Of a stretch of 64,000 bases of DNA, positions 1-23,000 are shown piece after piece (position 1 is the stretch's first letter; each line of letters opens with the position of its first letter). The position numbers were made by a program, and so were the translations under genes. The stretch is from Antedon mediterranea (lineage: Eukaryota > Animalia > Echinodermata), in NCBI RefSeq assembly GCF_964355755.1, contig NC_092676.1, positions 8,285,888-8,349,887 of the forward strand, given 5' to 3'. The notes beneath the pieces were generated by a model that made no database searches, was not told the DNA's origin, and saw only the letters and a program-made list of their open reading frames with translations.

Positions 1-992
1 CATGCATTTGACACTCTATAGTGGATGATCGACCAAAGTGTTGCAGTTTATCTTTCTGTGGTTATAGTCGGGATGGGGGGGGGGAGGGAGGGGTGGTAGT
101 TGAAAGTGGTGGTGGATGGGCATGTGGGATCTGCTTAGGTTAGCAAATAAAAGAAGTAAACAAATGAAAGAGGAGCTTCAAAATAAGAGAGGAGTAATCT
201 GTTGCAAAGACTAAAATTCACAACGATCTGATAATTTATTCAAATTTCCAGAGGATATAACCTATAAAATGACATTAAAACTGGAAATTACAGAATCTAT
301 AATTAAAAATTAATTTTTTTTCTCACAACACAACTAGAACTATATAAAACATTAAGAATTTTTCTGACCAATGAGTTTCAAATCAAATAATCAAAGAAAA
401 TAAAATGTTTTTACTAATATACCATGTTTTTTTTAATAAAAATGCCTATGTTTCTCGCAACACTGCTTGTAGATTTTAAATTTACCCCAGTATTTTATTT
501 TAGAAATCAATTATTAAACATTAGAACTACCTATTTGTAATAAATCAGCTAATAAAATACACCACTTTGGGCGTTATGGTGAAGTAAAGTTTAGTTGCAT
601 TGAACAATTAAAAAAAAGTGAAAAACACCCCTTTTTAAATAAATGGTATCTCCCAAAGTATGAAATAAAAAAAAATAAAAAAATTTGAAACAGGTACACA
701 ATGCATTGTTATTATGCATACACTAATTATTTTTTATAATTAAATGAACATCACAAAAATATCGTTCATCAAAGTAGTACCAATATCCATTTTTAAAAAC
801 CTTAAAAAAGGACAAAATTTGTCAAAAACACAAATTTTGCCGTTGCCATGGAAATATACGTGTGAAATAAAGAATACTTCATATTTGATTTCTCTCAACA
901 CATATATAGCCATGTGCAAAATTTGAAAGAAATCCATTTTTTGAGTCTGCCACTCTTTTTGATATTTCTTTGATTCTTACAGACAATGGCTC
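1..992 (-). mobile_element. Kolobok-like non-autonomous DNA transposon, partial (runs off window); inverted copy of 26294-30162
   Basis: Ends ...ACAGACAATGGCTC followed by TTAA (993-996). Near-identical reverse complement of 26294-27290. A purine-purine terminus with TTAA target is the Kolobok signature. Confidence 0.75.
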
Positions 993-1253: not shown

Positions 1254-1325
1254 AGTGTTGTCAGTGCTGTCAAACTATCAAATACATTGGCTGGCAATGT
1301 ACTTATTTGGTTATAGTGCAAACGC
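1254..1325 (-). CDS. 72-bp LRR exon RLHYNQISTLPANVFDSLTALTT(L), array 1
   Basis: Minus strand TTTTAAG|G CGT TTG CAC ... ACA CT|GTAAGT; open frame, phase 2/2. Confidence 0.8.
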
Positions 1326-2846
1326 CTTAAAAGTGAAAACAATGTACAGTAAAAATTACAATATGCAAGCTTTATACAACTTTGTTTTACTTTTAGCCAA
1401 TGAGACATTATCTACATAGTAAATGCTGATGAGTATACTTTAATTAGTATAAATAAACTATGTTAAAATAAGTAAAGTATTATTCTCATTAACACAATTT
1501 GTATAACAAATTCTAAATATTTGTTATTTTAATATATCTCTTTAAATCTCTTTAAATGAAGACCAATTTTCAATTATTTATATCTTAAAAAATTGCATAA
1601 TTTATTGATAATTGTTAAATATTTTACTAAAGGTTAGAGTCCAAATACCTTCAATTCAACAATGTACATTAAAAATTACAGTATTCAAGCTGTTCAGAAT
1701 CTCAACTTTTATTTTTCATACACATTTTGAATTATTTGTATAGTCTTTCAGTCAATGATAGGGACATTATCTACATAGTAAATGCTATTGAGTATACTTT
1801 AATTAAGCAAAAATAAACTATGTTAAAATAATTAGAATGTGTTATTGAACATAATTTGTATAACAAATAATAATGATAATGAATATAACCTAATCATAAA
1901 CATTTATTTTTCATATACATTTTGATTTTTTTTATAGTCTTTCAGGGACATTATCTAAATAGTAAATGCTGATGAGCTTACATTAATTAGGCAAAAATAA
2001 ACTGTTAAAATATGAAAAATGTTATTCTCATACACACAATTTCTTAATGTATTTAATAATTTAATAGTTAAATCTTTTTAAAGGAATGTTAAAATATTAA
2101 TAAAGTGTTATTCTCATGAACACCATTACTATAGCAAATTGTAAATATTTGTTACATATTAAAAAAAAGTATTTAATAATAATAATTAAATTTCTTTAAA
2201 TGAAGACCAATTTTCAATTATTTTTATCTTTCAAAATTGAATAATTTATTGATAATTGTTAAATATTTTACTAATGCTAAGTGATTTTTAAAATATATAC
2301 TGTATACTGTATGTTGATTACATTATGAAATGATACAATGCATATATTCATTGTTATCAATTATGTTATTATCAATTAAAAAAAAAAAATTAAACAAAGA
2401 AATTGATATGATCAAAATACTTACAGGGATATCAGTGCTGTCAAACTATCAAATACATAGTTTAGTTACGAGATAGGGACATTATATAAATAGTAAATGC
2501 TGATGATACTTTAATTAGGCAAAAATAAACTGTTAAATTAAGAAAATGTTATTCTCATTAATACAATTGTTTTAGCAAATTCTAAAAATGTGTTATCTTC
2601 TTTAATATATTAATAAAATAATAATTATATATCTTTAAATAATGACCAATTAACAATTAAAATCTTTAAAAAATGAATAATTAATATTGATGGTTAATAT
2701 TTTATTAAACCTAAGTTTTAAAAAAGTATATACTGTATGTATTGATCACATTATGAAATTATACAATTAGGAAGTAATATGAATTATTTTATTATGTATT
2801 TTTACAACAAATTAAACAAAGAAATTGATAAGAGCAAAATACTTAC

Positions 2847-2918
2847 AGATGTGTCAGTGCTGTCAATCTATCAAATACATTGGCTGGCAATGTTCTTATT
2901 TGGTTATTGTACAAATAC
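2847..2918 (-). CDS. 72-bp LRR exon YLYNNQIRTLPANVFDRLTALTH(L), array 1
   Basis: AG acceptor, GTAAGT donor, open frame, phase 2/2. Confidence 0.8.
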
Positions 2919-4009
2919 CTTAAAAGTGAAAACAATGTACAGTAAAAATTACAATATGCAAGCTGTATACAACTTTGTTTTACTTTTAGCCAATGAGACA
3001 TTATCTACATAGTAAATGCTGATGAGTATACTTTAATTAGTATAAATAAACTATGTTAAAATAAGTAAAGTATTATTCTCATTAACACAATTTGTATAAA
3101 AAATTCTAAATATTTGTTATTTTAATATATCTCTTTAAATCTCTTTAAATGAAGACCAATTTTCAATTATTTATATCTTAAAAAATTGCATAATTTATTG
3201 GTAATTGTTAAATATTTTACTAAAGATTAGAATCCAAATACCTTCAAAGTAAAAACAATGTACATTAAAAATTACACCATTCAAGCTGTTTAGAATCTCA
3301 ACTTTTATTTTCGATATAGATTTTTGAATTATTTGTATAGTCTTTGATAGGGACATTATCTACATAGTAAATGCTGATGAGCATACTTTAATTAAAGATA
3401 TATTTTCCCTCTGAAAAATATTCAGAGGGACAATTCAGATATTAATAATGAATAATTTATTTATAATGTTAAACACTTTACCAATGCCAGGTGGTTTTAA
3501 CATTTGTACTTTATATATTGATTAAATTATGAAATAACATTTTTAAAACAAATTAAACAAGGAAATTAATATGATAAAGATACATACAGGGATATCAGTG
3601 CTGTCGAACTATCAAATACATAGTTTAGTTAAGGGATAGGGACATTATATAAATAGTAAATGCTGATGATACTTTAATTAGGCAAAAATAAACTGTTAAA
3701 TTAAGAAAATGTTATTCTCATTAATACAATTGTTTTAGCAAATTCTAAAAATGTGTTATCTTCTTTAATATATTAATAAAATAATAATTATATATCTTTA
3801 AATAATGACCAATTAACAATTAAAATCTTTAAAAAATGAATAATTAATATTGATGGTTTATATTTCATTAAACCTAAGTTTTTAAAAAGTATATACTGTA
3901 TGTATTGATCACATTATGAAATTATACAATTAGGCAGTAATATGAATTATTTTATTATGTATTTTTACAAAAAATTAAACAAAGAAATTGATATGATCAA
4001 AATACTTAC

Positions 4010-4081
4010 AGCTTTGTCAGTGCTGTCAAACTATCAAATACATTGGCTGGCAATGTACTTATTTGGTTACCACCCAAACTC
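4010..4081 (-). CDS. 72-bp LRR exon SLGGNQISTLPANVFDSLTALTK(L), array 1
   Basis: AG acceptor, GTAAGT donor, open frame, phase 2/2. Confidence 0.8.
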
Positions 4082-5704
4082 CTTAAAAGTAAAAACAATG
4101 TACAGTAACAATTACATGCAAGCTGTATATAACTTTTATGTTTTACTTTTAGCCAATGAGACATTATCTACATAGTAAATGCTGATGAGTATACTTTAAT
4201 TAGTATAAATAAACTATGTTAAAATAAGTAAAGTATTATTCTCATTAACACAATTTGTATAACAAATTCTAAATATTTGTTATTTTAATATATCTCTTTA
4301 AATCTCTTTAAATGAAGACCAATTTTCAATTATTTATATCTTAAAAAATTGCATAATTTATTGATAATTGTTAAATATTTTACTAAAGGTGTTAGAGTCC
4401 AAATACCTTCAATTCAACAATGTTCATCAAAAATTACAGTATTCAAGCTGTTCAGAATCTCAACTTTTATTTTTCATACACATTTTGAATTATTTGTATA
4501 GTCTTTCAGTCAATGATAGGGACATTATCTACATAGTAAATGCTATTGAGTATACTTTATTAAGGCTAAAATAAACTGTTAAATTAAGAAAATGTTATTC
4601 TCATGGATGAACACAATTTGTATGACAAATTATTTGTTATCTTAATGTATTAATATAATAATTAAATCCAAATGAAGACCCAATATTATCAATAATATAT
4701 TTGTATATTGTATGTATTGGTCACATTATCTACATAGTAAATGCTATTGAGTATACTTTAATTAAGGCTAAAATAAACTATGTTAAAATAATTAGAATGT
4801 GTTATTGAACATAATTTGTATAACAAATAATAATGATAATGCATATAACCTAATCATAAACATTTATTTTTTATACACATTTTGATTTTTTTTATAGTCT
4901 TTCAGGGACACGATCTAACTAGTAAATGCTGATGAGCTTACATTAATTAGGCAAAAATAAACTGTTAAAATATGAAAAATGTTATTCTCATGAACACAAT
5001 TTCTTACTGTATTTAATAATTTAATATTTAAATCTTTTCAAATGAATGTTAAAATAATAAAGTGTTATTCTCATGAACACCATTTCTATAGCAAATTCTA
5101 ATATTTGTTTTCATATAATAATTATATTAATTAAATCTCTTTAATTAATGACCAATTAACACTTATTACATTATAAAATGATAAAATGCATAATGTTTAT
5201 TTTTATAAAAATATATTGTTATTTATTTTGAAAAAAATAATTAAACATAGAAATAAATAATTGCAAAATACTTTAGGCCTACAGCTAATGTCAGTGTTGT
5301 CAAACTATCAAATACCATGGGCTGGCAATGCACTTATTTGTTGATGTTCATAAAGGAATAACAGTGATATAGTGGTTGGGGTTAAGGTATAAAAAGTGTT
5401 AAAATAAGAAAGGGTCATGAGAAAATTGTAAATATTTGTTACATATTAAGTATTGAATAATAATACTTAAATTTCTTGAAATGGAGACCAATTTTCAATT
5501 ATTTTCATCTCTCAAAATTGAATAATTTATTGATAATTGTTAAATATTTTACTATATTATGCTAAAGTGATTTTTAAAATATAAACTGTATACTGTATGT
5601 TGATTACATTATGAAATGATACAATGATTAATATTCATTGTTTTAAATTATTTTATTTTCAACTTAAAACAAATTAAACAAAGAAATTATTATGAGCAAA
5701 ATAC

Positions 5705-5776
5705 AGTATTGTCAGTTTTGTCAATCTATCAAATACATTGGCTGGCAATGTTCTTATTTGGTTATTCCACAAAGAC
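5705..5776 (-). CDS. 72-bp LRR exon SLWNNQIRTLPANVFDRLTKLTI(L), array 1
   Basis: AG acceptor and open frame; donor weakened to GTATTT by a small deletion. Confidence 0.65.
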
Positions 5777-6170
5777 CTTAAAAGTAAAAACAATGTACAG
5801 TAACAATTACAATAATCAAGCTGTTTGATATGTCAACATTTATTTTTCATATACATTTTAATTTTTGTTATAGCCTTTCAATGACATTATCTACATAGTA
5901 AATGCTGATGAGCTTATAATATGAAAAATCTTGTACAATTTCTTTATAAAATCAAAATATTTGTTATCATCTTAATGTATTTAATAATGTAATATTTAAA
6001 TCTCTTTAAATGAATGTTAAAATAATAAAGTGTTATTCTCATGAACACCATTTCTATAGCAAATTGTAAATATTTTAATAATTATATTAATTAAATCTCT
6101 TTAATTAATGACCAATTAACACTTATTACATTATGAAATGATAAAATGCATAATGTTTATTTTTATTTAA

Positions 6171-7099
6171 TAAAAATATATATATAAATATAAATATATT
6201 TTATTCATTTTTTGTATAAAAATAATCAAAATATGCACATTTTCCATACAATTAGCTTCATAATTAAAAATGTTCAATACAAGTTGGGTAGCAATGGGTA
6301 GCATATTGTGTATGCTTTCATTTGATACCATACAGTTTGTCCATTGGCATTTTAAAGAATAATTTAACACAAAAATGTTTTTTTGGTTGTCATTTTTAGG
6401 TCAAAGGTCAGTAAAAGCATTTCCGGTCATTTTTTCGCTAAAAGTTGTGTTAGACGGAATATAAATATGTATATTCTGAACAATTTGACACAAAAAGAAC
6501 ACTTGAATTATTTAATATTATAAATAAACCAAAATAAATTTACACTATTTAAAATACTCATTTTAATAAAAATAATAAAATATGCACATTTTTAACAAAA
6601 TTAATATAATATTTACAGATTTTTAATACAAGTTGGGTATCAATGGATAGAATATTTTATGGGCTTTCATTTGATACCAAATATTTTTTCCAAACACTTA
6701 AATTATTTAATATTATATAAATAAACATAACAATTACACTCCCAAATATTCATTTTTTGTATAAAAATAATCAAAATATGTACATTTTCCATACAATTAG
6801 CTTCATAATTAAAAATGTTCAATACAAGTTGGGTAGCAATAGGTAGCATATTGTGTATGCTTTCATTTGATACCATTCAGTTTGTCCATTGGCATTTTAA
6901 AGAATAATTTAACCTGAAAATGTGTTTTTTGGGTCAAAGGTCAGTAAAAGCATTTTCAGTCATTTTTTTTGTGTTAGACCGAATATAAATATGTATAAAT
7001 CTGTACGACAAGTGGTTGTCGAGATATAAGAAGCACATATTTTTAACCTTTGACCCTGATTTTGGGCATGTTCGTCCCGGATAGCGAATTTGGCACACA
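6171..7099. mobile_element. Probable DNA-transposon remnant with internal direct repeats
   Basis: 6200-6490 is repeated at 6750-7000, with a third partial copy at 6555-6690; the block interrupts the LRR array abruptly. Confidence 0.4.
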
Positions 7100-8740
7100 T
7101 TCCATGTTGTTCGTTGGGGTCAAATTATCCTATAACAGTTGAGATATTCTCTCCTAAATTAAATGCATACAAATCTGACCCAGGTCCTAGACTATGTGGA
7201 ACACCTTTGAGGTTGCGGACTTTCGGGCAAAATAGCAAGCATTTGGATTTGGTTTCATTAAAAGTAATATCATGGTCACTAGCAAAACCTTCACAGAGTC
7301 CAATTGGGCTTTGTAAGCCAGTCACTGACGGAGCCAAAAGGACCAAGTCATCGGCAAAGCTTAGGCAATTCAGTTTAAGACTGTTAATTTCACAACCTTC
7401 TTTTGACTTAGTCAGTTCAACAGTTAACGGATCAGTGTACACATTGTAAAGTAGAGGGGACATAACGCCTCCCTGGCGAACCCCATTACGAACAGTGAAA
7501 GAATCGGAAACGGAACTTCCCCACCTGACAACAAATTCCTGATTCCTATACCATGACCTCAGTATCTTAACTACAGTTGAAGGGGTACCCCTGTCAATTA
7601 GGGTCTTGAAAAGTGTCCAGTGGTTCACTTTATCAAAGGCTTTGCTAGCGTCCAAGAAACAGCAATAAACTGGGCTACCATGATTGCTGTAATGCTCGAT
7701 AATCTGTTTAAGAGCAAATATACACAATTCGGTTGAGTGACCAGATTTGAAGGCAAACTGGTTGTCATGGGAGTCCAGTGAATTACCACAATGTTGTATC
7801 ATTACAGACTCTAGAAGTTTAGAAGCTACACATGCCAAAGCTATTGGCCGATAATTCCCTTTATCAGTGATATTCCCTGATTTAGATTTAATTACCGGCA
7901 CAAGCGTGACTTTTGTGAGATTACTTGGAACAAACCTGTGAACAAACATAGCCTTAAAACATACACTTAAAATAATACTAAGTCGCTCAGAAGCGAATTT
8001 GAAATGCTCATTGCATAGACCATCATATCCCGCTGCTTTAGCATTGGGCAATTTATCAATTAATAGCTTAATATTATGGGGTGAAACATCAATTTCACCG
8101 TCTGTTCAGTTTTCAAGAGTTTCATTAACAACAGTCTTATGCTCAGATGAGTCAATACTATTAAATAAATCGGAGAAATGTTGACGCCATAGGTCACAAA
8201 TGTCATTTTCCCCCTTAGCACTACCAATAATGTTAGACTGGGAATTGGCGTAGCTGGATTTCTTAACCTTACCCCAGAAACTATTATAGTCCTTATCATC
8301 AAAAGACTTGGCCATCGAGTCCGCCCTTAGCATTTCTTCGTTAGATTTATACTTTCTGAGGGCATTTTTTAAATTATATCTAGTGATTTTCATGTGTTCA
8401 TAGATGTGGCCATATCTGGGTTTACCCAACCCACGCCACTTCAAGAATGCTTCCCGGGCATGTTTATGAAATCCAGCTACTCGGTTATTCCACCCAGGGA
8501 CAACATTGACTTTTTGATTTTTAGTCGACTTAAAACACCACTCAGAACTGACTTTCAGACACTCAATAATATTGTCATATAAATCACTAATATCATTGCA
8601 ATGGCATTCATCTTTACATGAGGAATCATTACAAAGTATACCATCGCAATTGAGAGTAAGGTTACTAAGTAAGGATTCAGTTATCTCATTAAAATTGTTT
8701 ATATCCTCCCTCTTAACATTATTCCAGTTAACTTTGATAA
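7100..8740 (-). mobile_element. Decayed non-LTR retrotransposon (LINE, RTE-X-like) ORF2 fragment
   Basis: ORF 7125-8051 has RT motifs YRPIAL, FLDASKAFD, GVRQGGVMSPLLYNVY and FADD. The upstream part (8106-8444) is frameshifted, and both ends are truncated. Confidence 0.9.
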
Positions 8741-9090
8741 TTTTTTTAAAAAAATGTTATGTACCTTTTTTAAATGTTATTATATTATTTATTATTGTTT
8801 TATTTCAATGAAACTTCGCACCTTCCTTAATTAACTATTGTTCTATTATTATGCAAAATTTTCATTAAAATCAACCCAATGGAACACTTTCAATTTAAGC
8901 ATAAAACATATGTTTTATGAAAATCATACATAATTTACGCCATCTTTTTAACCAATATACTACACAAAATGTTAAAATGTATCTATTTATTTGTCTCAAA
9001 ATAGAAAAACACCAAGGTAATGTAAATAAATATTGTTTCAGCTATCATTTTCTGTAAAAATAAAAAAAATGTTATTTTTCAGCCTTTTAA

Positions 9091-9695
9091 CACGTTCACT
9101 GCCACGGCGTATTTATACGTCAAAAATTGCGTGTCGCTACTTGCCAAGACGTAATACTACGTCAAAATCGTAGCACTTTTGTATTGTATGTAGAATCGCT
9201 GGCAGTGGTGATTGGAACAGGAATTATCGCATGGCAGTTTATGAATGATGTACGTAAACGATAATCTAAAAATAAATGTCATATGTTTGTTTGTGTTTAT
9301 TCCCTCATGCATTGAATATGGTTGATACGATGGCGCCCTCACACTCAATATAATCATCTCAAACATGTCATAAATTGCACTAATAGTAAATAAAAATAAT
9401 AAAGGATGAAATGATTCAGTGTGGTTTACTGTTTTTATCTCTCGATGATAGGTTTGACCGATTTTAGCGCGGAAAATCCCCGACGTATATTTACGTTCCT
9501 GGCAAAGTCAATAAAATTGTTGGACCATTGCCAGTGACGTATTTATACGTCTCAACGGTTTTTCCCGCCATCGTATTTTGAATGACATCATGATAGTCTG
9601 TGACCAGATGTTACACTTTCAAACTGTAATTTAATATGTAAACGGGACTTGGCACTGGGACAGAAATTACGGAAAATGCCTTGGCAGTCAATGTG
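9091..9695. mobile_element. piggyBac-like MITE
   Basis: TTAA|CACGTTCACTGCCA ... TGGCAGTCAATGTG|TTAA: TIRs plus TTAA duplication. Confidence 0.75.
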
Positions 9696-9764
9696 TTAAT
9701 GTTTTTTCTTGTTTCTACAAATCTACAAATGCGATCACTTATGTCAGATTTCGCTTGCATGTGC

Positions 9765-11185
9765 CACATATACCTTTTTTAAATGTTATATACCTTTTAA
9801 ACTAATTCATTGCATATTACTGTGTTATAAGCTATAGTATGCTTGCATGAATTTATTTATTTATTTCATGCTTTTAATACTTTATTATTTATATCATGCT
9901 TATATTGAATAAAAACACTGTCAAACATTGAAAGTAAATAACTGTGTGAAGTATAGCTGATAATAAAGTTTGGTTCTAGCTAGGACGCAACGCAAGGCTG
10001 TAAGCCGAGATGAAAAGTTTGGTCTAGCTAGGACGCAACGCAAGGCTGTAAGCCGAGATGACCAATGACAAGCGACAGTTCTTGCGTTGTGCTTACGTCT
10101 TTACGATTGCGTCGTAGTGGGAACCATGCTTAAACAATGGTAGTGTTGAATCTAACCCAAGTAATGTACTGTACAGCATTAATACAACATCACAAATAAC
10201 ATTACAATCTATAACTAACTTGAAAATGTATGGTTTCTATGAATGACTGTAAAATTTTGTGGAAAAGGGCTTTGTTATTTTTTGTATTGTTTTATAATTA
10301 TAAATAGAAGTGAGTATACAAACTTTGAATGCAAGGTGATTTTCCTGTGTCTAGATGGAATCTGAAAGTATTGGAACAATAAACAAATAATAACTAATAA
10401 TTACTGTATGACTTTGTACTGAACTTTTTATTTATTTTGAACTTTTTTTATATTTATAATTACAAAAAAAAAACCCGTTTTCTTGGTAAAATAGAGAAGT
10501 GATTAAGAGTAAAAAATACAAAACTGATTGGCAGGATGAACCTCAAAACTATAATAAAAGTATTAACAGAAAAATGGCAAACAGGTTGAATTCAATGTAG
10601 TAATAAAGTTGATGCAGGATTAATAAATATACGTTTATTTCTAATATTGTAGTATTAGAAATAAATGTATTATCAATTATGTACATATCATAATGACTTT
10701 GAAGAAGCAATGGTCGTTGTACAGGAAGTTCAAAATATGCAAGTGGAACAGCATTGCCAAGTCAGCCAATCAACGACTCACAACAGTTACGAAGATTCAG
10801 CCAATCAAATCTAAGTCAAAGCTTGTTAATTTTTTACAGCATTCATCATCAAAGCCATTATGTTATATACATAATTGAAAGCAATACACTTTACATTATT
10901 ATTTTCCTGTTTCACTTCAAACTTCAAATCGATATATTAAATTAAGGCTGTTCGTCTTTTACATGGTTAAAGGGTCTTTCACACCTGCAAATAAACCGGA
11001 GCCAGACCAAAGCAAGTGTGAAAGAGGCTTTAGATAATATGAGCTTTTTTAAGGAAATTTTGCAGATTTGTGTACTATTAGTTTAAATTGTAAATATCTT
11101 TTCTATTATTTTCTATTTTCGTACAATAACTTTCTTAAATATTCCTCTTTAAGAGCAGGCTGGTCGCCTCCTGGACACTCCCTTT
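9765..11185. repeat. Segmental duplicate of about 33060-34440
   Basis: Colinear similarity starting at the 19-bp minisatellite and including a shared small MITE (9960-10130 vs 33250-33370). Confidence 0.85.
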
Positions 11186-12903
11186 ATACTTGGTGATATT
11201 CCGATCCTTTTGGAAATAAGTCCTTACTGTACTTTGATAAGTTCGGTCAATGTCCCACTTTTATTTCATCATCTTTTAAAGTATTGAAATACATTGCACG
11301 TAATAAATAAAATCAATAAATAATAGCGTTCAGCTTGATATGATATGATAATTGAGTATACAATCTTGGGTAATGGCAGGGAAGAGTGATATTTCCCTCT
11401 TCCCTGGTAATGGTTACTACAAGCTGTATGTTAAAGCAACCGATAGAAAACATCTTGATATACCGTATGGAACAATAGTGTGTGATCCTCTAAAAGCAGA
11501 TGGTACCATTGGCGAAACAGGAACAATCAAGCTCACGATAAAGCTTTATTTTAAAATTACTTTTTGTTTGACGAACTGTGTTGTGAATGTTTTGTTTGAA
11601 TACTCAAATTATAACACACTGCCCTCTAATTTATTTTCTTAATGCTGCTTTTAATAGTAATAATAAATATTAATGACAATCAAATACGAATATAATATAA
11701 TAATGGAACTTTGATTAAGTACTCCTCAAGTTTTTTGCATTTAGGTTTGGTACTCCTTAAGTTGTTAGAATTCAAAACATTTTACGAAAGTAGTACGTCA
11801 TAACATTACCAAACAACATCAATCAATTCTTTCTTTAAATCTACGAAATCGTCAAATAATTAATAATATTACTAAAATTGATGATTTAAATCTTCACATA
11901 TAATTTATGTTAATTAACTTTTCAAGTCTTTACTTAACGTTGTAGACAATTAGTACAACATACAGTACCGATTTTTACCAAGTAACTAAATTCAGGTTTC
12001 TTTAGAGTTGAGTTAAATAATTAGTTATTTGAAGTTAAAACAACTTCATCAAAAAATTGTACGTTTTTAGACACATTTAAAAAAACTAAAATATTCACAA
12101 ATCTACTTATACTGTATATAATACAATTAAGGAATGAAATTCAAAACCTTGTAATCAGATATTAGTCATTATTAAGAATGTAACATGTTTTATTTTCTAA
12201 TTTGCCGTTTTATAACATTCGACTTTCCATACCTCTAGCATACAATGTAATCATCACCATATCTGGTTAAACTTAAATGTTCTTAATATACTAGGTAAAG
12301 TTGTAAATAAATGGATTGAGAAACAACCAAATAATATTAATTGATACTTCCATAATATTATTTGATACTTTTATGATATACGTATTTAAACATTAGGCCT
12401 ACTGTATAAATATTGTTTGTACAGATGTCAAACAACTCGAGAGGTCGAGAAATTAAAAGACCTTGAATAATTTATAAAGCGTATTAATATAAACCAGTGA
12501 ATGATAAAATCGTAAAATATAAACAATTAGTGTTTGCCAACTTTAAACGTGCAGTATAATATTTTAAAAGGATTACAATTAAAGATAATCCATTGTTATC
12601 AGATATATATAATATTTTTAAATGTAAAGATTACATGAATACAATAGATGACAATTTTGTAAGCGAAAACAAGTTCAAATGTAGAGTTTTGCGCAATAAA
12701 TAATTAAATCACATTGTATTAAGTGGAATCTGTTCAACTGCCAGTTGACGCACTTTGCACTTAAACATATCGGCAATTGTGTAAAGATAAGTATTGTCTG
12801 AGAGGTTTATAGAAATGATCGATGTCGCTGCCCAAACATATCATCAGGAATCCTCATCCAATCCATCTCAGAACCAATTACCATTACAATTATCCGGAAC
12901 CAG

Positions 12904-12940
<37 letters not shown>

Positions 12941-13460
12941 TTCATCATCCACCCTGGTTTGCTTTCCATATTTATTTGATCTTGTTTCATATTCCGTTGA
13001 GAGTTGTCCATCATTTCTTATTGGACACGAATGCTTTGAGGTAACACACTGCAATTAAAATAAACCCAATGCTGTTAAATGAATAGAAATTACAATAAAA
13101 TCATCCTTTTCAGGGACTTCAGAGGCAGTGCAATCTTTATATTGCCTACTCATAATAATTTTCTCCAAAATATTATGTGTACAGATTCTCTTAATATTTT
13201 TTTTTAAAATTAATTAATTCATTTTTTTTAATATTGTCTTTACTTTTATGTATGGTTTGGACTTTCGAAAATATTAAATAGGTCAAGTTCTTAAAGCTAT
13301 AGTTAATTATTTGCTGTAGAGGGTGTAGATGCAAACAAATGTTTGTGGAACTAGGGTGGTAAATTAGGTCAAGGGTCATCGATCCATACCAAAATATTGG
13401 GGAAAAAAATTTACCTCCTACAAGCCACATTTTAAAGCAAATCTCTACCATCAACTAGAG
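11100..13460 (-). pseudogene. Heavily decayed LRR coding remnant
   Basis: Minus-strand fragments broken by stops and frameshifts: LQQIINYSFKNLTYL, IPDDMF, SIISINLSDN, LKILYISDN, FLDLSS, LVFLNVSKN, LNSNNLRS, LDCSC. Confidence 0.55.
12904..12949. repeat. (CAT)n microsatellite
   Basis: About 15 CAT units with one interruption. Confidence 0.95.
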
Positions 13461-13946
13461 GTTTGGATTTGTGTATACATTTCATTTTAAATAGTATTCA
13501 TACATTTTAACGTTAAAAGGAGATTGGACGCCATATTGGATTCTGGCATGATGATGTCATTGTTATCGACTCAATTTATCAACTACTATGAGAAGTAGTT
13601 ATTAAAGTAAGCCTCGGCTAATTTTAATCATCATAACACAACTCCAAGTAACAAAACCCGTTAATTGGTTTCCCTATCCCCTATATATAGGTATTTGTGT
13701 GTGTTAATAGGCATTTGTGTGCGTTATATAGGCCAAAATTTAAAAGTGCCATACAAAATTTGGGGGATTTTTTTTCTGACATTGTATATGGTATACTCTA
13801 TCAGAAAAACCCAAAAAGAATTTTCCTATACTTTTTTCCCGCACCATGGGTGAGCCACTTGATGGTGATTCTTTGCTTTTTACTAAAACCGTTGTGTCGA
13901 TTTTGTTTTTCCTCGACAAAATAAATAAAATGAAAAGAATAAAAAT

Positions 13947-14037
13947 CTATACTTCTCTTGTTTGTTCATCTTTACATGATGGTTGACAGTAATCAATAAC
14001 GCCTACGAGGCAACACAGTCTTGAACAATCTGTGTCC
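13947..14037 (-). CDS. Terminal exon (L)DTDCSRLCCLVGVIDYCQPSCKDEQTREV*
   Basis: Polypyrimidine acceptor TTTTGCTCTCATAG, phase 2. The LxTDxxxxCC..CxP pattern resembles the hinge that follows the LRRs in type-C LGRs (RXFP/GRL101-like). Confidence 0.7.
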
Positions 14038-17000
14038 CTATGAGAGCAAAAGTAAGCACACAGCAAATGAATGTCAATGATTTTTAGTTTCATTTTAACA
14101 GTGTTCAAACTTGAAGAAAATTTACTATTGTTTGTGTACTTGTTTCTCTTAGATCATAAAGATGGTTTAGAATATTCAAAGATTTTGAAGGTACATTTAA
14201 TTGATAACTATTCTGAATATCAAAATATTATGTGTAGTGTTATATATAATATAAATACACAAAGAATAAGAACATACTATCATGAACTGTAACATTTAAT
14301 CATAATAATTACTTATTAATTTTAATATGTTTATTTTAAATTGAACATAATCTAACATTCAAATTATTAATGTAGATTATTTGACATGATTACTGATAAC
14401 AGCATGCTAAAAATAAAAACTGACAAATTCAATGACAAAATTGAAACTGGTTAAACAACAGTGCCAACATTGTTTTAAAAAAGGTTTTTAAACCTATTAA
14501 AATAGCTGAAAGTTTTTAATGCAAGTTGCCACTGACGTTTTAGACATAAATTGACAAATTATTATATGATAGAACGCCAATAAACAATACATGAATTGAT
14601 TTAATTAACGGATCAATCAAAAGTGTCATGAGGTGTACTACAGTTGAAAATTGACCTCCTGAATGCAGTTGTACGAATTAAATGAAATTCAAATTCTTTT
14701 AAGAATTTAAAAATATTGATTTTCCTTGAAATAATAATAAGAGTAACATTGTGTATGCACACCTGTCATATACTTACAAACGTGTTAAGTTTGTTAATTG
14801 TTCAAAAGTTTTATCTTCGTAATAAAGCAAGCTGTTCCCATATAAAAATCTAAATAATGACAATGATTAGCCATAGTAAATTTTAATTTTAAAAATATTA
14901 ACATTTCAAAATGAAGGGTACTATTACCATGAGTTTAGGTTGTACAGGATGTTAATAACCAAGAGGCTCTTGTACTATAGGATATCATCCTTGTGAAATA
15001 ATGGGTGAAGCCAGAAGGAAAATTGGAATGAATATAATCAATGACAAAAGTACATTGTTGAATGTGTTTTCATTTATAAACTATTTAAACGTACCATTCT
15101 AGCGTTGCAATAAATTAAGTTAAGAATCTTGATGAAAACCTAATACATGTTTACACTTGTTTGCAAAGTTTCTCGTTCAATTCTAGTTGCATTTACATTT
15201 TAGAGTAAATAACTAGCTTTGTAATCCTAATGACAACCTGCAGTTTAAATTATTCCTTAAATAGCTACTTCATGGCATGAGTTATTTAAATTATAAATCA
15301 TATATTAATATTATGAACTTACAAATATGAAAGAGATGAAGCAAAAGAAGAAAATGCACCTGGTTCTATGGTAGTTATAGCATTGTTATCTAAATGCCTG
15401 TTGGGAGATAACCGATATGTATATGGTTTGTTTGTTAATCCTACAAAATTACTATATTATTATTATTCAATTGATTTTAAACAAATCTGTGAAAACAGTG
15501 ATTTACTAATAGACTGGTTATACTACAACAAACAGTGACGTCATTGGATATAAATTAAACAGTACACATTGGATCATATAAGATAAAAAATAACTAAATT
15601 TGTAAAATCAATCAATAAGAATAATTATTATTTAAGCCAAATATTGAATTCTTTCACACCACAACTATTTTAACCAGAAATGTATAATTTTTAACTTACC
15701 ATCAATATTACTATCTAATTTGTTTAATGTCATAATCAAAGTATTGAATTAAACCTTTGTATGATTCCACTGTAAAACTACGCCAATTAAAACATGAAGT
15801 TATTGATGGCGTTATTGTTATAATCTTACAAAAATATTGGTGCTGGTTCAATATTTTATTAAGTTATTTTCTTTATATTTATTTATAATCAATCAATCTA
15901 TAATAATTTATATTAGATGACTACCAAATTATTGGTGCTTGTTCGATATTGTATTAAGTTATTTTCTTTATATTATTTATAATCAATCAATCTATAATAA
16001 TTTATATTAGATGACTACATTTATTTTTTAATTTAACTGTTATTTGTATATGTTGTAAATTCAACAATGCTTTCCTTCTTGCAATCAAGAAAGTTTAATG
16101 AGTAAAATGTATACAACAATGTACAATAGAAAGTAGCTATTTGATGTCAAATTTACTTTTTATAGCAAATTCTATTTATGTTTGTTATTATTATCATCAT
16201 TATGTTTTTAATATTATTATTAAAGATATATTGTCCCTCTGAAAAATATTCAGAGGGACAATTCAGATATTAATAATAAATAATTGATTGATAATGTTAA
16301 ACATTTTACTACTGCCAAGTGGTTTTAAAATGTATACTGTATATATTGATTACATTATGAAATGATAACATTTTAAAAACAAATTAAAGAAGGAAATTAA
16401 TATGAGAAAGATACTTATTACAGGGATGTCAGTGCTGTCAAACTATCAAATACATTGGCTGGCAATGTACTTATTGGGTTTATTGCCCAAATGTCAAGCT
16501 GTTTGATAGGTCAACTTTTATTTTTCATTTTTTAATTAGTTTATAGTCTTTAGTAAAGGGATAGGGACATTATCTAAATAGTAAATGCTATTGAGTATAC
16601 TTTAATTAGACAAAAATAAACTGTTAAAAAAAGAAAATGTTATTCTCATTAATACAATTTTTTTAGCAAATTCTAAATATTTGTTATCTTCTTTAATGTA
16701 TTAATAAAATAATAATTATATATCTTTAAATAATGACCAATTAACAATTAAAATATTTAAAAAATGAATAATTAATATTGATGGTTAATATTTTATTAAA
16801 CCTAAGTTTTAAAAAAGTATATACTGTATGTATTGATCACATTATGAAATTATACAATTAGGAAGTAATATGAATTATTTTATTATGTATTTTTACAACA
16901 AATTAAACAAAGAAATTGTTATGAGCAAAATACTTACAGCCATGTCAGTGCTGTCAATCTATCAAATACATTGGCTGGCAATGTACTTATTTTGTTACCA

Positions 17001-20000
17001 CCCAAATTCCTTAAAAGTAAAAACAATGTACAGTAACAATTACATGCAAGCTGTATATAACTTTTATGTTTTACTTTCAGCCAATGAGACATTATCTACA
17101 TAGTAAATGCTGATGAGTATACTTTAATTAGTATAAATTATGTTAAAATAAGTAAAGTATTATTCTCATTAACACAATTTGTATAACAAATTCTAAATAT
17201 TTGTTATTTTAAAAAACTCTTTAAACCTCTTTAAATGAAGACAAATTTTCAATTATTTATATCTTAAAAAATTGAATAATTTATTGATAATTGTTAAATA
17301 TTTTACTAAAGGTTAGAATCCAAATACCTTCAAAGTAAAAACAATGTACATTAAAAATTACAGTATTCAAGCTGTTTAGAATCTCAACTTTTATTTTTCA
17401 TACACATTTTGAATTATTTGTATAGTCTTTCAGTCAATGATAGAGACATTATCTACATAGTAAATGCTGATGAGCATACTTTAATTAAAGATATATTGTC
17501 CCTCTGAAAAATATTCAGAGGAACAATTCAGATATTAATAATGAATAATTTATTTATAATGTTAAACATTTTACTAATGCCAGGTGGTTTTAACATTTGT
17601 ACTTTATATATTGATTAAATTATGAAATGATAACATTTTAAAAACAAATTAAACAAGGAAATTGATATGATCAAAATACTTACAGCGATATCAGTGCTGT
17701 CAAACTATCAAATACATAGTTTAGTTAAGAGATAGGGACATTATATAAATAGTAAATGCTGATGATACTTTAATTAGGCAAAAATAAACTGTTAAATTAA
17801 GAAAATGTTATTCTCATTAATACAATTGTTTTAGCAAATTCAAAAAATTTGTTATCTTCTTTAATATATTAATAAAATTATATATCTTTAAATAATGACC
17901 AATTAACAATTAAAATCTTTAAAAAATGAATAATTTATATTGATGGTTAATATTTTATTAAACCTAAGTTTTAAAAAAGTATATACTGTATGTATTGATC
18001 ACATTATGAAATTATACAATTAGGAAGTAATATGAATTATTTTATTATGTATTTTTACAAAAAATTAAACAAAGAAATTGATAAGAGCAAAATACTTACA
18101 GATGTGTCAGTGCTGTCAAACTATCAAATACATTGGCTGGTAATGTACTTATTTGGTTACCACCCAAACTCCTTAAAAGTAAAAACAATGTACAGTAACA
18201 ATTACAATATGCAAGCTGTATATAACTTTTATGTTTTACTTTTAGCCAATGAGACATTATCTACATAGTAAATGCTGATGAGTATACTTTAATTAGTATA
18301 AATAAACTATGTTAAAATAAGTAAAGTATTATTCTCATTAACACAATTTGTTTAACAAATTCTAAATATTTGTTATTTTAATAAATCTCTTTAAATCTCT
18401 TTAAATGAAGACCAATTTTCAATTATTTATATCTTAAAAAATTGAATAATTTATTGATAATTGTTAAATATTTTACTAAAGGTTAGAGTCCAAATACCTT
18501 CAATTTAACAATGTACATCAAAAATTACAGTATTCAAGCTGTTCAGAATCTCAACTTTTATTTTTCATACACATTTTGAATTATTTGTATAGTCTTTCAG
18601 TCAATGATAGGGACATTATCTACATAGTAAATGCTATTGAGTATACTTTAATTAAGGCTAAAATAAACTGTTAAAATAAGAAAGTGTTATTCTCATGAAT
18701 GAACTCAATTTGTATGACAAATTATTTGTTATCTTAATGTATTTAATATAATAATTAAATCCCTTTAAATGAAGACCCAATATTATCAATAATATATTTG
18801 TATATTGTATGTATTGATCACATTATCTACATAGTAAATGCTATTGAGTATACTTTAATTAAGGCTAAACTATGTTAAAATAATTAGAATGTGTTATTGA
18901 ACATAATTTGTATAACAAATAATAATGACAATGCATATAACCTAATCATAAACATTTATTTTTCATATACATTTTGATTTTTTTTATAGTCTTTCAGGGA
19001 CACTATCTAAATAGTAAATGCTGATGAGCTTACATTTGTTAGGCAAAAATAAACTGTTACAATTTGAAAAATGTTATTCTCATGAACACAATTTCTTAAT
19101 GTATTTAATAATTTAATAGTTAAATCTTTTTAAATGAATATTAAAATAATAAAGTGTTATTCTCATGAACACCATTTCTATAGCAAATTCTAAATATTTG
19201 TTTTCATATAATAATTATATTAATTAAAACTCTTTAATTAATGACCAATTAACACTTATTACATTATGAAATGATAAAATGCATAATGTTCATTTTTATA
19301 AATTATAGTTTTATTTATTTTGAAAAAAAATTAAACATAGAAATAAATAATTGCAAAATACTTAGGCCTACAGCTTTGTCAGTGTTGAAAAACTATCAAA
19401 TACCATGGGCTGGCAATGCACTTTTTTTTATGTTCATACAGGAATAACAGTGATATAGTGGTTGGGGTTAAGGTATAGAAATTGGTAAAAAAAGAAAGGG
19501 TCATAAGCAAATTGTAAATATTTGTTACATATTAAGTATTTAATAATAATTATTAAATTTCTTTAAATGAAGACCAATTTTCAATTATTTTTATCTTTCA
19601 AAATTGAATAATTTATTGATAATTGTTAAATATTTTACTAATGCTAAGTGATTTTTTAAATATATACTGTATACTGTATATTGATTACATTATGAAATGA
19701 TACAATGCATAATATGCATTGTTATAAATTATTTTATTATCAATTTAAAAAAAAAAATTAAACAAAGAAATTGATATGATCAAAATACTTACAGTCTTGA
19801 CAGTGCTGTCAAACTATCAAATACATTGGCTGGCAATGTACTTATTTGGTTATAGTTCAAATACCTTCAAAGTTAAAACAATGTACAGTAAAAATTACAA
19901 TATGCAAGCTGTATACAACTTTGTTTTACTTTTAGCCAATGAGACATTATCTACATAGTAAATGCTGATGAGAATACTTTAATTAGTATAAACTAGATGG

Positions 20001-23000
20001 TACGCTCGCTTCGCTCGCGTACCATCTAGGTCGTGCCCACAGATGGTTCTCGAATACACAGTAATTTCAGAGTAACAAAACTGGCGATTTCAAATGTACG
20101 TACCGCAGGACTATATACATTGTCGTTTACAGAAACGAATAAATAGACACGATGATTTATGTAGTCAACTAAAATTAGCAACCTGGGAATTACTTCCGAA
20201 GGAGAAACTTATCACAAAATGAGTCCAAGTTTTTGATTTGGACTCATTTAAAGAAACCCAATTTGTGTTTTGTATGTAACATTAGGGTTGAGGGATAGGA
20301 AAGCGAGGTACAAAGAGGAACAATTTTTAAATATATTCTTTATCCACTCAGTAACGAAATATTTTTTTCATGTTTTATAGGCCTATAAATAATATACCTC
20401 TAAATACAGTAAAACATTTGCGATTTAATACTTTTTTTATTTTATTTATTTATTTATTTCTTTTAAATATTCATTGTACACTAATTTTCCCCGTGTATGG
20501 CAAGAGATTCCTAATTATATTAGAGAACATTCTTTATTTAGTTTAGTTAAAACTGTCACTGTCATAATCGATTGAAATATTAAAGTACCATGTCACGATA
20601 CACCACTACGACGTTTATATTTGGTAATTATTAATTAATACAAACGTTGAGAAAGAACTGTCAGTATAAAGTTTATTTGTATATAATAATGTGTTTATAT
20701 ATCTAACAGTAGAGCCTATCCACAATATCGCAAGTTTATTCTGAAAGGGCCCATATATTTACCTACCGTATGTGTTAAACCAAGGGCTCATAAATTTACC
20801 TACAGTACTTGTGTTAAACCAAACTCTGGCAGACTGAGAGATTGGGATGTTTCATTCATCGCAAATCAATAGATTTGTATAATCGTATATTAAATCTATC
20901 AAAATAGTATTTTTTAAAGAAAATCGGCCTGTCTTCAACATTATGATGGTGTACTCTAGCTGTTCAACCGGTTTTCAGCTATTAAAAACAATTATCGTAG
21001 GAGGAGATAGGAAAATGCGAAGCCTCCTCGCATTTTTGTGGCGGGTATTTTTCAAGACGGACATCCATTATACAGTGTATACCACGGTCGGAAAACACCC
21101 CTATTTGGGGCAAATCTTGGAACCTAAATTCGTTTTAACCGTCAATAACTTATTATCTAACTTAATTTAATTAGTAAACAGGGTTACATCAGGTGGTTAA
21201 AATCAGTACCGAGAGTACGAACCAACTTTATATACCATCGAGTAAAAATTCTAGAAGTAAGGCGCGATTTACCGAATTTTGCCCTTACGTAAATTTATAT
21301 ATAGATTTGTTACATATTAAGTATTGAATAATAATAATTAAATTTCTTGAAATGGAGACGAATTTTCAATTATTTTCATCTCTCAAAATTGAATAATTTA
21401 TTGATAATTGTTAAATATTTTACTAATGCTAAAGTGATTTTTAAAATATATACTGTATACTGTATGTTGATTACATTATGAAATGATACAATGATTAATG
21501 TTCATTTTGTTATAAATTATTTTATTATCAATTTAAAAAGAAACTAAACAAAGAAATTGATATGATCAAAATACTTACAGGGATATCAGTTTTGTCAAAC
21601 TATCAAATACATTGGCTGGTAATGTACTTATTTGGTTATAGTGCAAACGCCTTAAAAGTGAAAACAATGTACAGTAAAAATTACAATATGCAAGCTGTAT
21701 ACAACTTTGTTTTACTTTCAGCCAATGAGACATTATCTACATAGTAAATGCTGATGAGTATACTTTAATTAGTATAAATAAACTATGTTAAAACAAGTAA
21801 AGTATTATTCTCATTAACACAATTTGTATAACAAATTCTAAATGTTTGTTATTTTAATATATCTCTTTAAATCTCTTTAAATGAAGACCAATTTTCAATT
21901 ATTTATATCTTAAAAAATTGAATAATTTATTGATAATTGTTAAATATTTTACTAAAGGTTACAGTCTAAATACTTTCAAAGTAAAAACAATGTACATTAA
22001 TCTAATCTGTACAATCTAAACTTTTATTTTTCATGAACATTTTGAATTATTTGTATAGTCTTTCAGTCAATGATAGGGACATTATCTACATAGTAAATGC
22101 TGATGAGCATACTTCAATTAAATAAACTGTTAAAATAAGAAAGTGTTATTCTCATGAATGAACACAATTTGTATGACAAATTATTTGTTATCTTAATGTA
22201 TTTAATTATAATAATTAAATTCCTTTAAATGAAGACCCATTATCAATAATATATTTGTATATTGTATGTATTGATCACATTATCTACATAGTAAATGCTA
22301 TTGAGTATACTTTAATTAAGCAAAAATAAACTATGTTAAAATAATTAGAATGTGTTATTGAACACAATTTGTGTAACAAATAATAATGATTACATTTTGA
22401 TTTTTTTTATAGTCTTTCAGGGACACTATCTAAATAGTAAATGCTGATGAGCTTACATTAATTAGGCAAAACTAAACTGTTAAAATTTGAAAAATGTTAT
22501 TCTCATGAACACAATTTCTTACTGTATTTAATAATTTAATAGTTAAATCTTTTTAAATGAATGTTAAAATAATAAAGTGTTATTCTCATGAACACCATTT
22601 CTATAGCAAATTCTAATATTTGTTTTCATATAATAATTATATTAATTAAAACTCTTTAATTAATGACCAGTTAACAGTTATTACATTATGAAATGATAAA
22701 ATGCATAATGTTCATTTTTATAAATTATATTTTTATTTATTTTGAAAAAAAATTAAACATAGAAATAAATAATTGCAAAATAATTTAGGCCTACAGCTTT
22801 GTCAGTGTTGTCAAACTATCAAATACCATAAGCTGGCAATGCACTTATTTTTTTATGGTCATACAGGAATAACAGTGATATAGTGGTTGGGGTTAAGGTA
22901 TAGAAAGTGTTAAAATAAGAAAGGGTCATAAGCAAATTGTAAATATTTGTTACATATTAAGTATTTAATAATAATAATAATTAAATTTCTTTAAATGAAG

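Follow-up and report, generated by a model that had tools for sequence, protein, structure and literature searches.

Mosaic exons in a tandem array of single-repeat LRR exons from the echinoderm Antedon mediterranea

The VLRs of lamprey and hagfish are built from cysteine-capped, 24-residue leucine-rich repeat (LRR) modules in which an invariant scaffold presents variable residues on the concave face. In those loci the donor cassettes occur in either orientation and have no splice sites, and their sequence is copied in somatic cells into a gene that is incomplete. Concerted evolution by unequal crossing-over and gene conversion is known from the LRR regions of plant NLR/RLP genes and from the LRR exons of gonadotropin receptors. 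The gonadotropin-receptor LRR exons are also mentioned in a passage of PMC11378527. For the ROCO genes of Ectocarpus, passages of PMC3341825 and PMC11378527 describe LRRs encoded by one 72-nt exon each, inactivated LRR copies within the introns and positive selection at binding-face sites. In sea-urchin Toll-like receptor families, the positively selected residues reside mainly in the concave-face beta-strands, according to the relevant part of PMC3367398. A limited open-access search by title and abstract, which is not proof of absence, returned no crinoid or echinoderm LRR array with one repeat per exon.

The window analysed here (the whole stretch of 64,000 nucleotides from contig NC_092676.1 of Antedon mediterranea) contains one predicted minus-strand gene, made up of a hydrophobic start exon, an exon resembling an LRRNT and nine LRR exons of 72 bases each. 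Exon 1 (25174..25273, minus strand) starts with an ATG at 25273 and ends in phase 1 at a GTGAGT donor; its translated N-terminus (MFILKGIILLYCIIILAVLPCSRCSS..) is hydrophobic, suggesting a putative signal peptide. Exon 2 (24594..24723, minus strand; 130 nt) encodes an LRRNT-like cysteine cap with the motif ECPAYCTCT..EVGC.. and possesses an AG acceptor and a GTAAGT donor, handing phase 1 on to the LRR array. It was the sole match in a scan of the minus strand for CPxxCxC. Pfam assigned no family to the 42-aa exon 2 piece, and a word-based search recovered no homologue of it.

The nine live LRR exons, denoted by their lowest coordinate, all lie on the minus strand. In gene order they are e23637 (23637..23708, HLGSNKISTLPANVFDRLTALKE; AG acceptor, GTAAGT donor, LRR_8 at 17.7 bits), e21579 (21579..21650, RLHYNQISTLPANVFDSLTKLIS), e19793 (19793..19864, YLNYNQISTLPANVFDSLTALSR), e18100 (18100..18171, SLGGNQISTLPANVFDSLTALTH), e16938 (16938..17009, NLGGNKISTLPANVFDRLTALTW), e5705 (5705..5776, SLWNNQIRTLPANVFDRLTKLTI), e4010 (4010..4081, SLGGNQISTLPANVFDSLTALTK), e2847 (2847..2918, YLYNNQIRTLPANVFDRLTALTH) and, as the final live exon, e1254 (1254..1325, RLHYNQISTLPANVFDSLTALTT). 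Each is 72 bases long, has phase 1/1 and encodes one 24-residue repeat (9/9). An AG acceptor is present in 9/9 and a GTAAGT donor in 8/9, the donor of e5705 being weakened to GTATTT, with 4 bases fewer than in the other units. The repeat belongs to the typical 24-residue LRR class: the consensus LxxLxLxxN(x)I/LxxLxxxxFxxL is kept in 9/9 exons, with L, L, N, I, L, F, L and L at the consensus codons and a junction codon CT|G that encodes Leu. With single exons as queries, LRR_8 was the best Pfam family for 9/9, at 15.5-18.9 bits each against a cut-off of 27 bits; one exon spans only a third of the 61-position LRR_8 model.

The array ends near position 993, where it stops against an inverted copy of 26287-27288 (self-BLAST). 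A motif scan of the minus strand within the window recovered neither an LRRCT nor a membrane anchor or any further 3' exon. The gene's 3' end falls outside the window, and an LRRCT may lie beyond the window's left end. Because the array stops near 993 and the window holds no 3' exon, this gene copy may be truncated or dead.

Besides the live exons, nhmmer detected 10 decayed copies, bringing the total to 19 exon copies, all on the minus strand and in gene order. The decayed copies sit in the introns of the array, on the same strand as the gene. One type is represented by the 3' half exon at 2413..2460, which ends in ..LIS, has lost the acceptor and the 5' half by deletion and retains its donor; further 3' half exons of this type lie at 3578-3623, 17673-17719 and 23208-23255 (all minus strand). 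The other type, exemplified by 5278..5344, carries a frameshift and has no acceptor; similar copies reside at 16417-16493, 19366-19428, 22789-22859 and 24282-24339, and an isolated one at 42025-42111 (all minus strand). As a side observation on copy abundance, short contigs of four public runs were placed on region 16400-24450, and in run X1 the summed contig depth in most of the bins that contain a live exon or the 3' half exon at 17684 was approximately 2-100x that of adjoining intron bins. This depth is not a copy number, and further exon copies elsewhere in the genome are a lead only.

In this design the locus resembles the brown-algal LRR-ROCO type I arrays of Ectocarpus and Saccharina, for which passages of PMC3341825 and PMC11378527 likewise report one 72-nt exon per LRR, symmetric phase, tandem exon duplication with shuffling, dead intronic copies and binding-face variability. 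It differs from those genes in several respects. The host is an animal, not a brown alga. The gene starts with a hydrophobic exon and an LRRNT-like cap, so that its product is predicted to be of the extracellular type, and no ORF for a ROC-COR GTPase is visible in the window. Intron phase is 1 here, whereas 2 is reported for ROCO genes in those passages, and every dead copy has the orientation of the coding strand; in Ectocarpus, some are described as lying on the opposite strand. The Antedon array works like the ROCO-type shuffled arrays and is not a ROCO gene.

Exons of symmetric phase and equal length (9/9 live exons) might also suggest combinatorial alternative splicing, in which any exon subset keeps the frame and differing repeat sets vary the binding surface; splicing of this kind is reported for brown-algal ROCO genes in part of PMC11378527. 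However, symmetric phase is equally a plain consequence of tandem exon duplication, and alternative splicing would leave unexplained the mosaic exons described below. We consider it an unlikely account of the locus, albeit one compatible with the explanation that we favour.

The array contains a multi-unit segmental duplication. An earlier note on this sequence had described two colinear and very similar blocks; these are present and extend further than noted, block A spanning 2461..5912 and block B 16549..19972. Self-BLAST gave 92.857% identity over 3486 columns, and global alignment found 253/3486 columns to differ (identity 92.7-92.9%). As the earlier note also held, exons at matching positions in the two blocks nevertheless differ: e2847 (YLYNNQIRTLPANVFDRLTALTH) is the positional partner of e16938 (NLGGNKISTLPANVFDRLTALTW), and e4010, ending in ..TK, is that of e18100, ending in ..TH.

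The mosaic structure of e18100 is apparent at the level of individual sites. Its first 17 bases are those of e4010 (0/17 differences), and the resemblance continues up to exon base 52. Its 3' end and intron flank match e2847 instead, the two having in common a 27-mer (GATAAGAGCAAAATACTTACAGATGTG) found in no other unit. At up to 2 mismatches this 27-mer has exactly two sites in the window, 2827-2853 and 18080-18106, and 0/100 shuffles gave a match. At exon bases 68 and 70 and at intron site +16 (alignment position 88), e18100 agrees with e2847 alone; the shared tract is short, with sites 52 and 111 as its limits. A triplet test placed the breakpoint of e18100 between 52 and 68 (0/5000).

A comparable pattern was found in e21579. 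Exon bases 1-17 are identical to those of e1254 (0/17 differences), and the upstream intron is also e1254-like, while the exon end (CTGATATCCCT, ..LIS) is of the kind seen in two 3' half exons, at 2425 and at 3588. The first of these positions is as originally recorded; the second half exon had been placed at 3589 and starts at 3588. The ..LIS end and 30 intron bases resemble the half exon at 2425, and the K codon and distal flank are e5705-like. For its part, e5705 has flanks of two affinities, e23637-like upstream and e21579-like downstream (0/5000), and e2847 combines an e1254-like upstream flank with a downstream flank of class D2, with a breakpoint between 17 and 52 (0/5000). Reassortment is likewise seen in the end types themselves: the 5' type RLHY is found with the 3' types ..TT and ..IS, SLGG with ..TK and ..TH, and the 3' type ..TH with both YLYN and SLGG. 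We conclude that the mosaic exons, read from one haplotype of one individual, are real.

Tests on the whole array agree. Over 101 informative sites the PHI statistic was 0.137, compared with a permuted mean of 0.496, and 0/2000 permutations gave a value as low. The informative sites fall into blocks with differing partitions. Approximately 38 upstream and 40 downstream sites form two sets, each showing almost no internal conflict. Incompatible pairs numbered 3/861 among upstream sites, 123/903 among downstream sites, 68/120 among exon sites and 1572/1806 between upstream and downstream sites. The flank trees agree with these tests. The tree of the upstream intron makes sisters of e5705 and e23637 (100/100) and groups e2847 with e1254, e19793 and e21579 (96/89). 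That of the downstream intron pairs e5705 with e21579 (99/98) within the D1 clade, and places e2847 and e23637 in the opposing D2 clade (100/100). Congruent trees for flanks and exon halves had been named as the outcome that would speak against recombination; the flank trees were instead found to conflict at 100/100 support.

Six triplets chosen by hand gave 0/5000 in 5/6 cases and 57/5000 in the sixth. A full scan by maximum chi-square identified 61/252 triplets as recombinant at 0/10000 permutations, these triplets sharing sequences and hence not being independent tests. Breakpoint intervals overlapped the exon in 34/61 significant triplets; they lay in the upstream intron in 13/61, mostly at -39..-27, and in the downstream intron in 14/61, mostly at +112..+115. 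The breakpoint hot zone is thus the exon plus approximately 40 bases on either side. The proposal that the invariant exon centre serves as the crossover or conversion point that reassorts the two variable ends is therefore borne out as to reassortment, which end types, trees, PHI and triplets all indicate; confinement of the breakpoints to the centre is not, given the 13/61 and 14/61 that fall in introns. Since few informative sites lie in the invariant centre, breakpoints are not placeable within it.

Could errors made when the repetitive sequence was assembled or polished have produced the mosaics, or could they stem from independent point mutations? The units are 85-97% alike, a setting in which consensus errors can arise, and among the short public-run contigs listed on 16400-24450 none spans a mosaic exon; a 386-letter X5 contig on 17735-18114 enters exon 18100 by 15 letters only and does not bridge it. 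Against this, each flank carries dozens of linked sites, and point mutation cannot yield such partitions. Furthermore, the switches occur on a scale of 20-100 bases while hypervariable sites stay distinct, the opposite of collapse, and the contig measures 30.56 Mb. An artefactual or mutational origin is, in our judgement, extremely improbable.

Diversity is distributed very unevenly along each exon. The core (bases 18-57) is near-invariant, whereas the 17 bases at the start of the exon and the 15 at its end are 3-10x as diverse as the neighbouring introns. Among seven units of one upstream class, segregating sites numbered 8/17 in the exon end against 6/104 in the intron (Fisher p 5e-5); the corresponding values were 4/15 against 7/101 for class D2 (p 0.035) and 7/15 against 17/100 for class D1 (p 0.015). 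The variable ends encode the residues of the LxxLxLxxN strand that are predicted to be solvent-facing. At variable codons pN was 0.495 and pS 0.267, compared with 0.044 and 0.041 at scaffold codons; the variable-codon pN/pS is 1.85 only, from small counts.

These figures bear on how the ends came to differ. On one reading, recombination is real and the variable ends are old, purifying selection on binding-face residues rejecting the tracts that would overwrite them, without positive selection. Within classes, introns differ by 1-4%, as expected if they and the core have been homogenised, and exon ends by 17-29%; many breakpoints fall at the rims of the variable ends (-9..2 in 5 triplets, 60..68 in 4 triplets); and pS is raised at variable codons, as expected of older codons. 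However, the same ends recur on differing backgrounds (..TH in e2847 and e18100, ..LIS in e21579 and the half exons), implying that exon ends are sometimes overwritten, and codon 23 encodes eight different residues across the nine exons. Old, protected ends are a possible but not a probable account.

We propose instead that the mosaics most probably arose in the germline, by unequal crossing-over and short-tract gene conversion, taken jointly, among the units of the tandem array, and that selection maintained or drove the diversity of the binding face. The conserved core and the splice-site flanks would be the longest identical stretches between diverged units, and misaligned homologous recombination would resolve within them, so that one unit's 5' variable end becomes joined to the 3' variable end of a different unit. 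The introns are each taken to split the beta-strand motif as LxxL|xLxxN, so that a crossover in the exon centre would re-pair whole binding-face patches. Conversion would homogenise all but the solvent-facing positions, and selection would keep or drive differences at x2, x3, x5, x7, x8 and x10. Dead half exons may serve as donors, the ..LIS end of e21579 being an example.

The 10 decayed copies, a store of sequence alongside the 9 live exons, and a live exon (e21579) bearing an end typical of half exons, raise the question of somatic diversification in the style of the lamprey VLR or of chicken immunoglobulin pseudogene conversion, with dead copies patching live exons and the assembly recording one state. 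The repeat consensus with its N-terminal cysteine cap also resembles VLR-type repeats, and a somatic idea has been raised for the brown-algal arrays in part of PMC3341825. The locus itself shows no sign of VLR-like somatic use: 19/19 copies lie on one strand in gene order, and the live exons have canonical splice sites and would therefore be expressible without an assembly step. The mosaics, moreover, reside in a 30.56 Mb contig, as expected of inherited sequence, and no deaminase or recombinase candidate was seen within the window. We regard somatic patching as very improbable.

The likeness to VLR loci, drawn in part from one passage of PMC3341825, consists in 24-residue LRR modules behind a cysteine cap (here LRRNT-like), in a constant scaffold that carries variable concave-face residues, in hybrid modules joined in conserved module sequence and in a local store of partial modules. 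The Antedon modules differ in being exons that can be spliced, arranged in gene order along a single strand, and a somatic step is neither shown nor needed. No donor cassettes devoid of splice sites and pointing both ways around an incomplete germline gene were found at the locus; the units that the earlier note called cassettes are ordinary same-strand spliceable exons of one gene, not VLR-type donors. It is highly doubtful that this is a VLR-like diversification locus in a non-vertebrate deuterostome, that is, a capped LRR receptor whose patches are re-paired and overwritten by short conversion tracts from live and dead exons, in the germline, perhaps somatically, or with exon-choice splicing, such that the receptor surface differs per animal or cell.

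Sea-urchin Toll-like receptors share the phylum and an LRR ectodomain with the Antedon gene, but the relevant part of PMC3367398 describes them as mostly intronless and diversifying as whole-gene families, whereas the diversity here is among exons of one gene. Toll-like receptors also have a TIR domain that follows a transmembrane segment; no TIR match was seen among 8 sequences scanned, the 3' end of the gene lying outside the window. From plant NLR/RLP and gonadotropin-receptor LRRs there is no difference in principle: all have chimeric repeats and duplicated blocks, sequence that is homogenised where selection does not act, and retained or selected variation at ligand contacts. The Antedon locus is an especially clean example because every 72-base exon is flanked by introns that provide a neutral reference. 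The mechanism is ordinary for tandem arrays, and the design has already been described in other eukaryotes. What the locus displays is two processes in one repeat-protein gene, a scaffold homogenised by recombination and ligand-facing residues that stay or become diverse, with crossovers inside a repeat re-pairing binding-face patches. If the gene is expressed in echinoderm immune cells, a phylum noted for its expansions of intronless TLRs would gain an extracellular LRR receptor of exon-modular design, one that could be compared, in a testable way, with how VLR-type receptors originated.

The surroundings of the array yielded some minor observations. Sequence unrelated to the array (5913..16278) lies inside the 11-kb intron from e16938 to e5705. 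Rfam gave no match within the window. The unrelated sequence includes a LINE-type reverse transcriptase ORF at 7125-8105 (minus strand; RVT_1, E 5.3e-33), adjoined by another ORF at 8106-8756. An arthropod affinity of the neighbouring gene, suggested by protein-atlas clusters, was discounted in favour of an alignment-based match of its protein, at 59% identity, to a protein of the crinoid Anneissia japonica.

The minus strand of the eukaryotic, AT-rich window reads as a single gene, predicted from its sequence. A start exon (25273-25174), encoding a hydrophobic opening stretch, MFILKGIILLYCIIILAVLPCSRCSS, and ending in a GTGAGT donor, is followed by a 130-base exon (24723-24594) specifying an LRRNT-like cysteine cap (ECPAYCTCT...EVGC) and by nine LRR exons of exactly 72 bases each, with starts at 23637, 21579, 19793, 18100, 16938, 5705, 4010, 2847 and 1254 (each named below by its start, as in e18100). 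All nine possess an AG acceptor and eight a GTAAGT donor, the remaining donor (e5705) being GTATTT. Introns are in phase 1: the first base of every live LRR exon finishes a leucine codon split CT|G, and every product, xLxxN(Q/K)I(S/R)TLPANVFD(S/R)LT(A/K)LxxL, is one typical 24-residue leucine-rich repeat. Pfam LRR_8 was the best family for all nine exons, at 15.5-18.9 bits each against a 27-bit cut-off, a shortfall arising because a single exon spans only one third of the model. No LRRCT or further 3' exon of the LRR gene was found within the window. GC content was 0.20-0.22 in the array vs 0.28-0.39 elsewhere. The intron between e16938 and e5705 extends for 11 kb and contains a LINE-type element (7125-8756, minus strand), made up of a reverse-transcriptase ORF (RVT_1, E 5.3e-33) and an adjoining 216-aa ORF without a Pfam match.

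Two multi-unit blocks of the array, 2461-5912 and 16549-19972, were 92.857% identical over 3486 columns by self-BLAST, with 253 of the 3486 columns differing in a global alignment. Together with a comparison of the exons, this bore out the claim of the earlier note that the blocks are colinear duplicates whose matched exons differ. Two exons described there as mosaics proved to be so. Bases 1-17 of e18100 are those of e4010 (0/17 differences), while the 27-mer at its boundary occurs in the window only at 18080-18106 and near e2847, at 2827-2853 (0 matches in 100 shuffles). In a four-way comparison, e2847 alone matched e18100 at exon bases 68 and 70 and at intron site +16 (alignment position 88); the shared tract, which lies between sites 52 and 111, agrees with a short conversion tract in a unit that otherwise resembles e4010. 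Similarly, bases 1-17 of e21579 are those of e1254 (0/17 differences), and its ..LIS end (CTGATATCCCT) and the following 30 intron bases are identical to the half exon at 2425, an inactivated intronic copy.

Recombination between array units as the origin of these mosaics is supported by alignment of the nine live units (each an exon with flanking intron), taking in 110 bases on the upstream side and 230 on the downstream side. Informative sites fell into blocks with differing partitions. The far-upstream sites set {5705, 23637} against all other units, those from -27 to exon base 9 set {1254, 2847, 19793, 21579} against all others, and those downstream separated two intron classes, D1 {1254, 5705, 19793, 21579} and D2 {2847, 4010, 16938, 18100, 23637}; all four combinations of upstream and downstream class were present. 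The proportion of incompatible site pairs was 3/861 in the upstream intron, 123/903 in the downstream intron and 68/120 in the 72-base exon itself, and 1572/1806 when upstream sites were paired with downstream ones. The PHI statistic was 0.137, whereas permutations averaged 0.496 and 0/2000 of them were as low. Maximum-likelihood trees of the two introns conflicted at 100/100 support, backing the recombination reading in the tree comparison set beforehand by the earlier note.

Six hand-picked triplets of units gave 0/5000 permutations in five cases and 57/5000 in one. When all 252 triplets were scanned without selection, 61 stood at 0/10000 permutations; since triplets have sequences in common, these counts describe a pattern and not independent events. 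Breakpoints were not confined to the exon: the interval overlapped the exon (72 of the 440 columns) in 34 of the 61 and lay in the upstream intron in 13, mostly at -39..-27, and in the downstream intron in 14, mostly at +112..+115.

Mean pairwise diversity was 0.302 at exon bases 1-17, 0.036 at bases 18-57 and 0.250 at bases 58-72, compared with 0.177 in the upstream intron (-110..-1), 0.121 in the downstream intron (+1..+110) and 0.145 beyond +110. The contrast between exon ends and introns persisted among units of the same intron class: segregating sites numbered 8/17 in the exon end vs 6/104 in the intron among seven units of one upstream class (Fisher p 5e-5), 4/15 vs 7/101 in D2 (p 0.035) and 7/15 vs 17/100 in D1 (p 0.015). 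The variable codons of each LRR exon, 1, 3, 4, 6, 22 and 23, are respectively x5, x7, x8, x10, x2 and x3 of the motif L-x2-x3-L-x5-L-x7-x8-N-x10, positions which in LRR structures generally face solvent on the concave sheet. Variable codons had pN 0.495 and pS 0.267; scaffold codons had pN 0.044 and pS 0.041. As the intron splits the beta-strand motif (LxxL|xLxxN), each putative binding-face patch is encoded jointly by an exon's 3' end and the 5' end of the exon that follows.

A profile built from the nine live exons detected 19 exon copies across the window, every one of them minus-strand. Besides the live exons, these are four 3' half exons whose acceptor and 5' half are deleted (2413-2460, 3578-3623, 17673-17719 and 23208-23255), five frameshifted copies without an acceptor (5278-5344, 16417-16493, 19366-19428, 22789-22859 and 24282-24339) and an isolated decayed copy (42025-42111) which retains AG and GTAAGT and is frameshifted. 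This last copy is situated 17 kb upstream of the gene start and possibly derives from a different array; its end, ..ATATGGCT, is similar to the ..TW end of e16938. Small minus-strand remnants at 1632-1654, 3226-3252, 4389-4412, 17311-17338, 18481-18503 and 21957-21984 retain the acceptor plus about 17 initial exon bases (such as GTATTTGGACTCTAACC) before passing into distal intron sequence; these pieces complement the 3' half exons and form a second reservoir of 5' variable ends. Where the array has its 5' edge, adjoining the decayed copy 24282-24339, a 182-base unit is present as two tandem copies with 99% identity (23928-24293), a very recent, local duplication.

We propose a mechanism that is usual for arrays of tandem exons, in which misaligned homologous recombination would both enlarge and reshuffle the array. 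Multi-unit unequal exchange is indicated by the 3.5-kb block duplication and by the propagation of dead units, and gene conversion by the short unique tracts. Because diverged units would share no longer identical stretches than the exon core and splice-site flanks, exchanges would tend to resolve there, joining the 5' end of one unit to the 3' end of another. The ..LIS end common to live e21579 and dead half exons suggests that dead copies participate. Homogenisation would remove differences everywhere but at the binding-face codons, where selection may either drive change or shield old differences; both are compatible with the data.

Excerpts of two papers (PMC3341825, PMC11378527) describe brown-algal ROCO 'type I' arrays in which every LRR has its own 72-nt exon, phase is symmetric, introns contain inactivated copies and binding-face sites vary; the present array matches this design. 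It does not belong to a ROCO gene: secretory-type and cysteine-cap exons stand at the start, the phase is 1 as opposed to the 2 given for ROCO, and no GTPase module was seen. VLR modules have a similar consensus and likewise form hybrids, but the defining features of a VLR-type locus are absent, since the copies have splice sites, lie on one strand and follow gene order. In sea-urchin TLRs, probably from the same phylum, positive selection on the concave face is described for mostly intronless genes in an excerpt of PMC3367398. A limited open-access search of titles and abstracts found no description of one-repeat-per-exon LRR arrays in crinoids or echinoderms; the locus joins a known class of one-repeat exon arrays, in an animal lineage for which no description was found.

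There is an inverted repeat of ~1 kb (1-999 vs 27288-26287, 97.6% identity). The left copy extends past the window edge, with the array beginning exactly at its inner end (~993), and the right copy lies ~1 kb upstream of the ATG. As the array adjoins an inverted copy of gene-upstream sequence, this LRR gene copy may be truncated; the repeat could represent a gene-truncating inverted segmental duplication or two mobile-element copies. In the intron upstream of e19793, 19897-21510 had a summed contig depth of 10^5-10^6 in public sequencing runs X1 and X5, vs 10^2-10^4 around it, which marks this stretch as a very high-copy repeat; it is probably a transposon that inserted into the array.

On the plus strand, 52053-53204 is an intact single-exon LRR membrane-protein gene of 383 aa with LRR_8, an LRRCT-like GNPFTCNC and a hydrophobic segment near the C-terminus. 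Of 5256 candidates searched with its protein, two matched at E <= 1e-5: the window's own protein, on a 30.56-Mb contig, and, with 59% identity, the crinoid protein 'trophoblast glycoprotein-like [Anneissia japonica]'. This single gene points to an echinoderm, probably crinoid, genome; a feature-based protein atlas pointed instead to arthropod clusters, a result given less weight. Nearby, a 520-base inverted repeat (53438-53957 and 55510-56019, 95.6% identity) encloses ORFs at 54110-54541 and 54820-55314 which matched no Pfam family; 53438-56019 is a candidate for a DNA transposon of the type that has long terminal inverted repeats. Another repeat, of ~1.4 kb, is dispersed in direct orientation (9768-11181 and 33076-34439, 78.8% identity) and is presumably an interspersed element.
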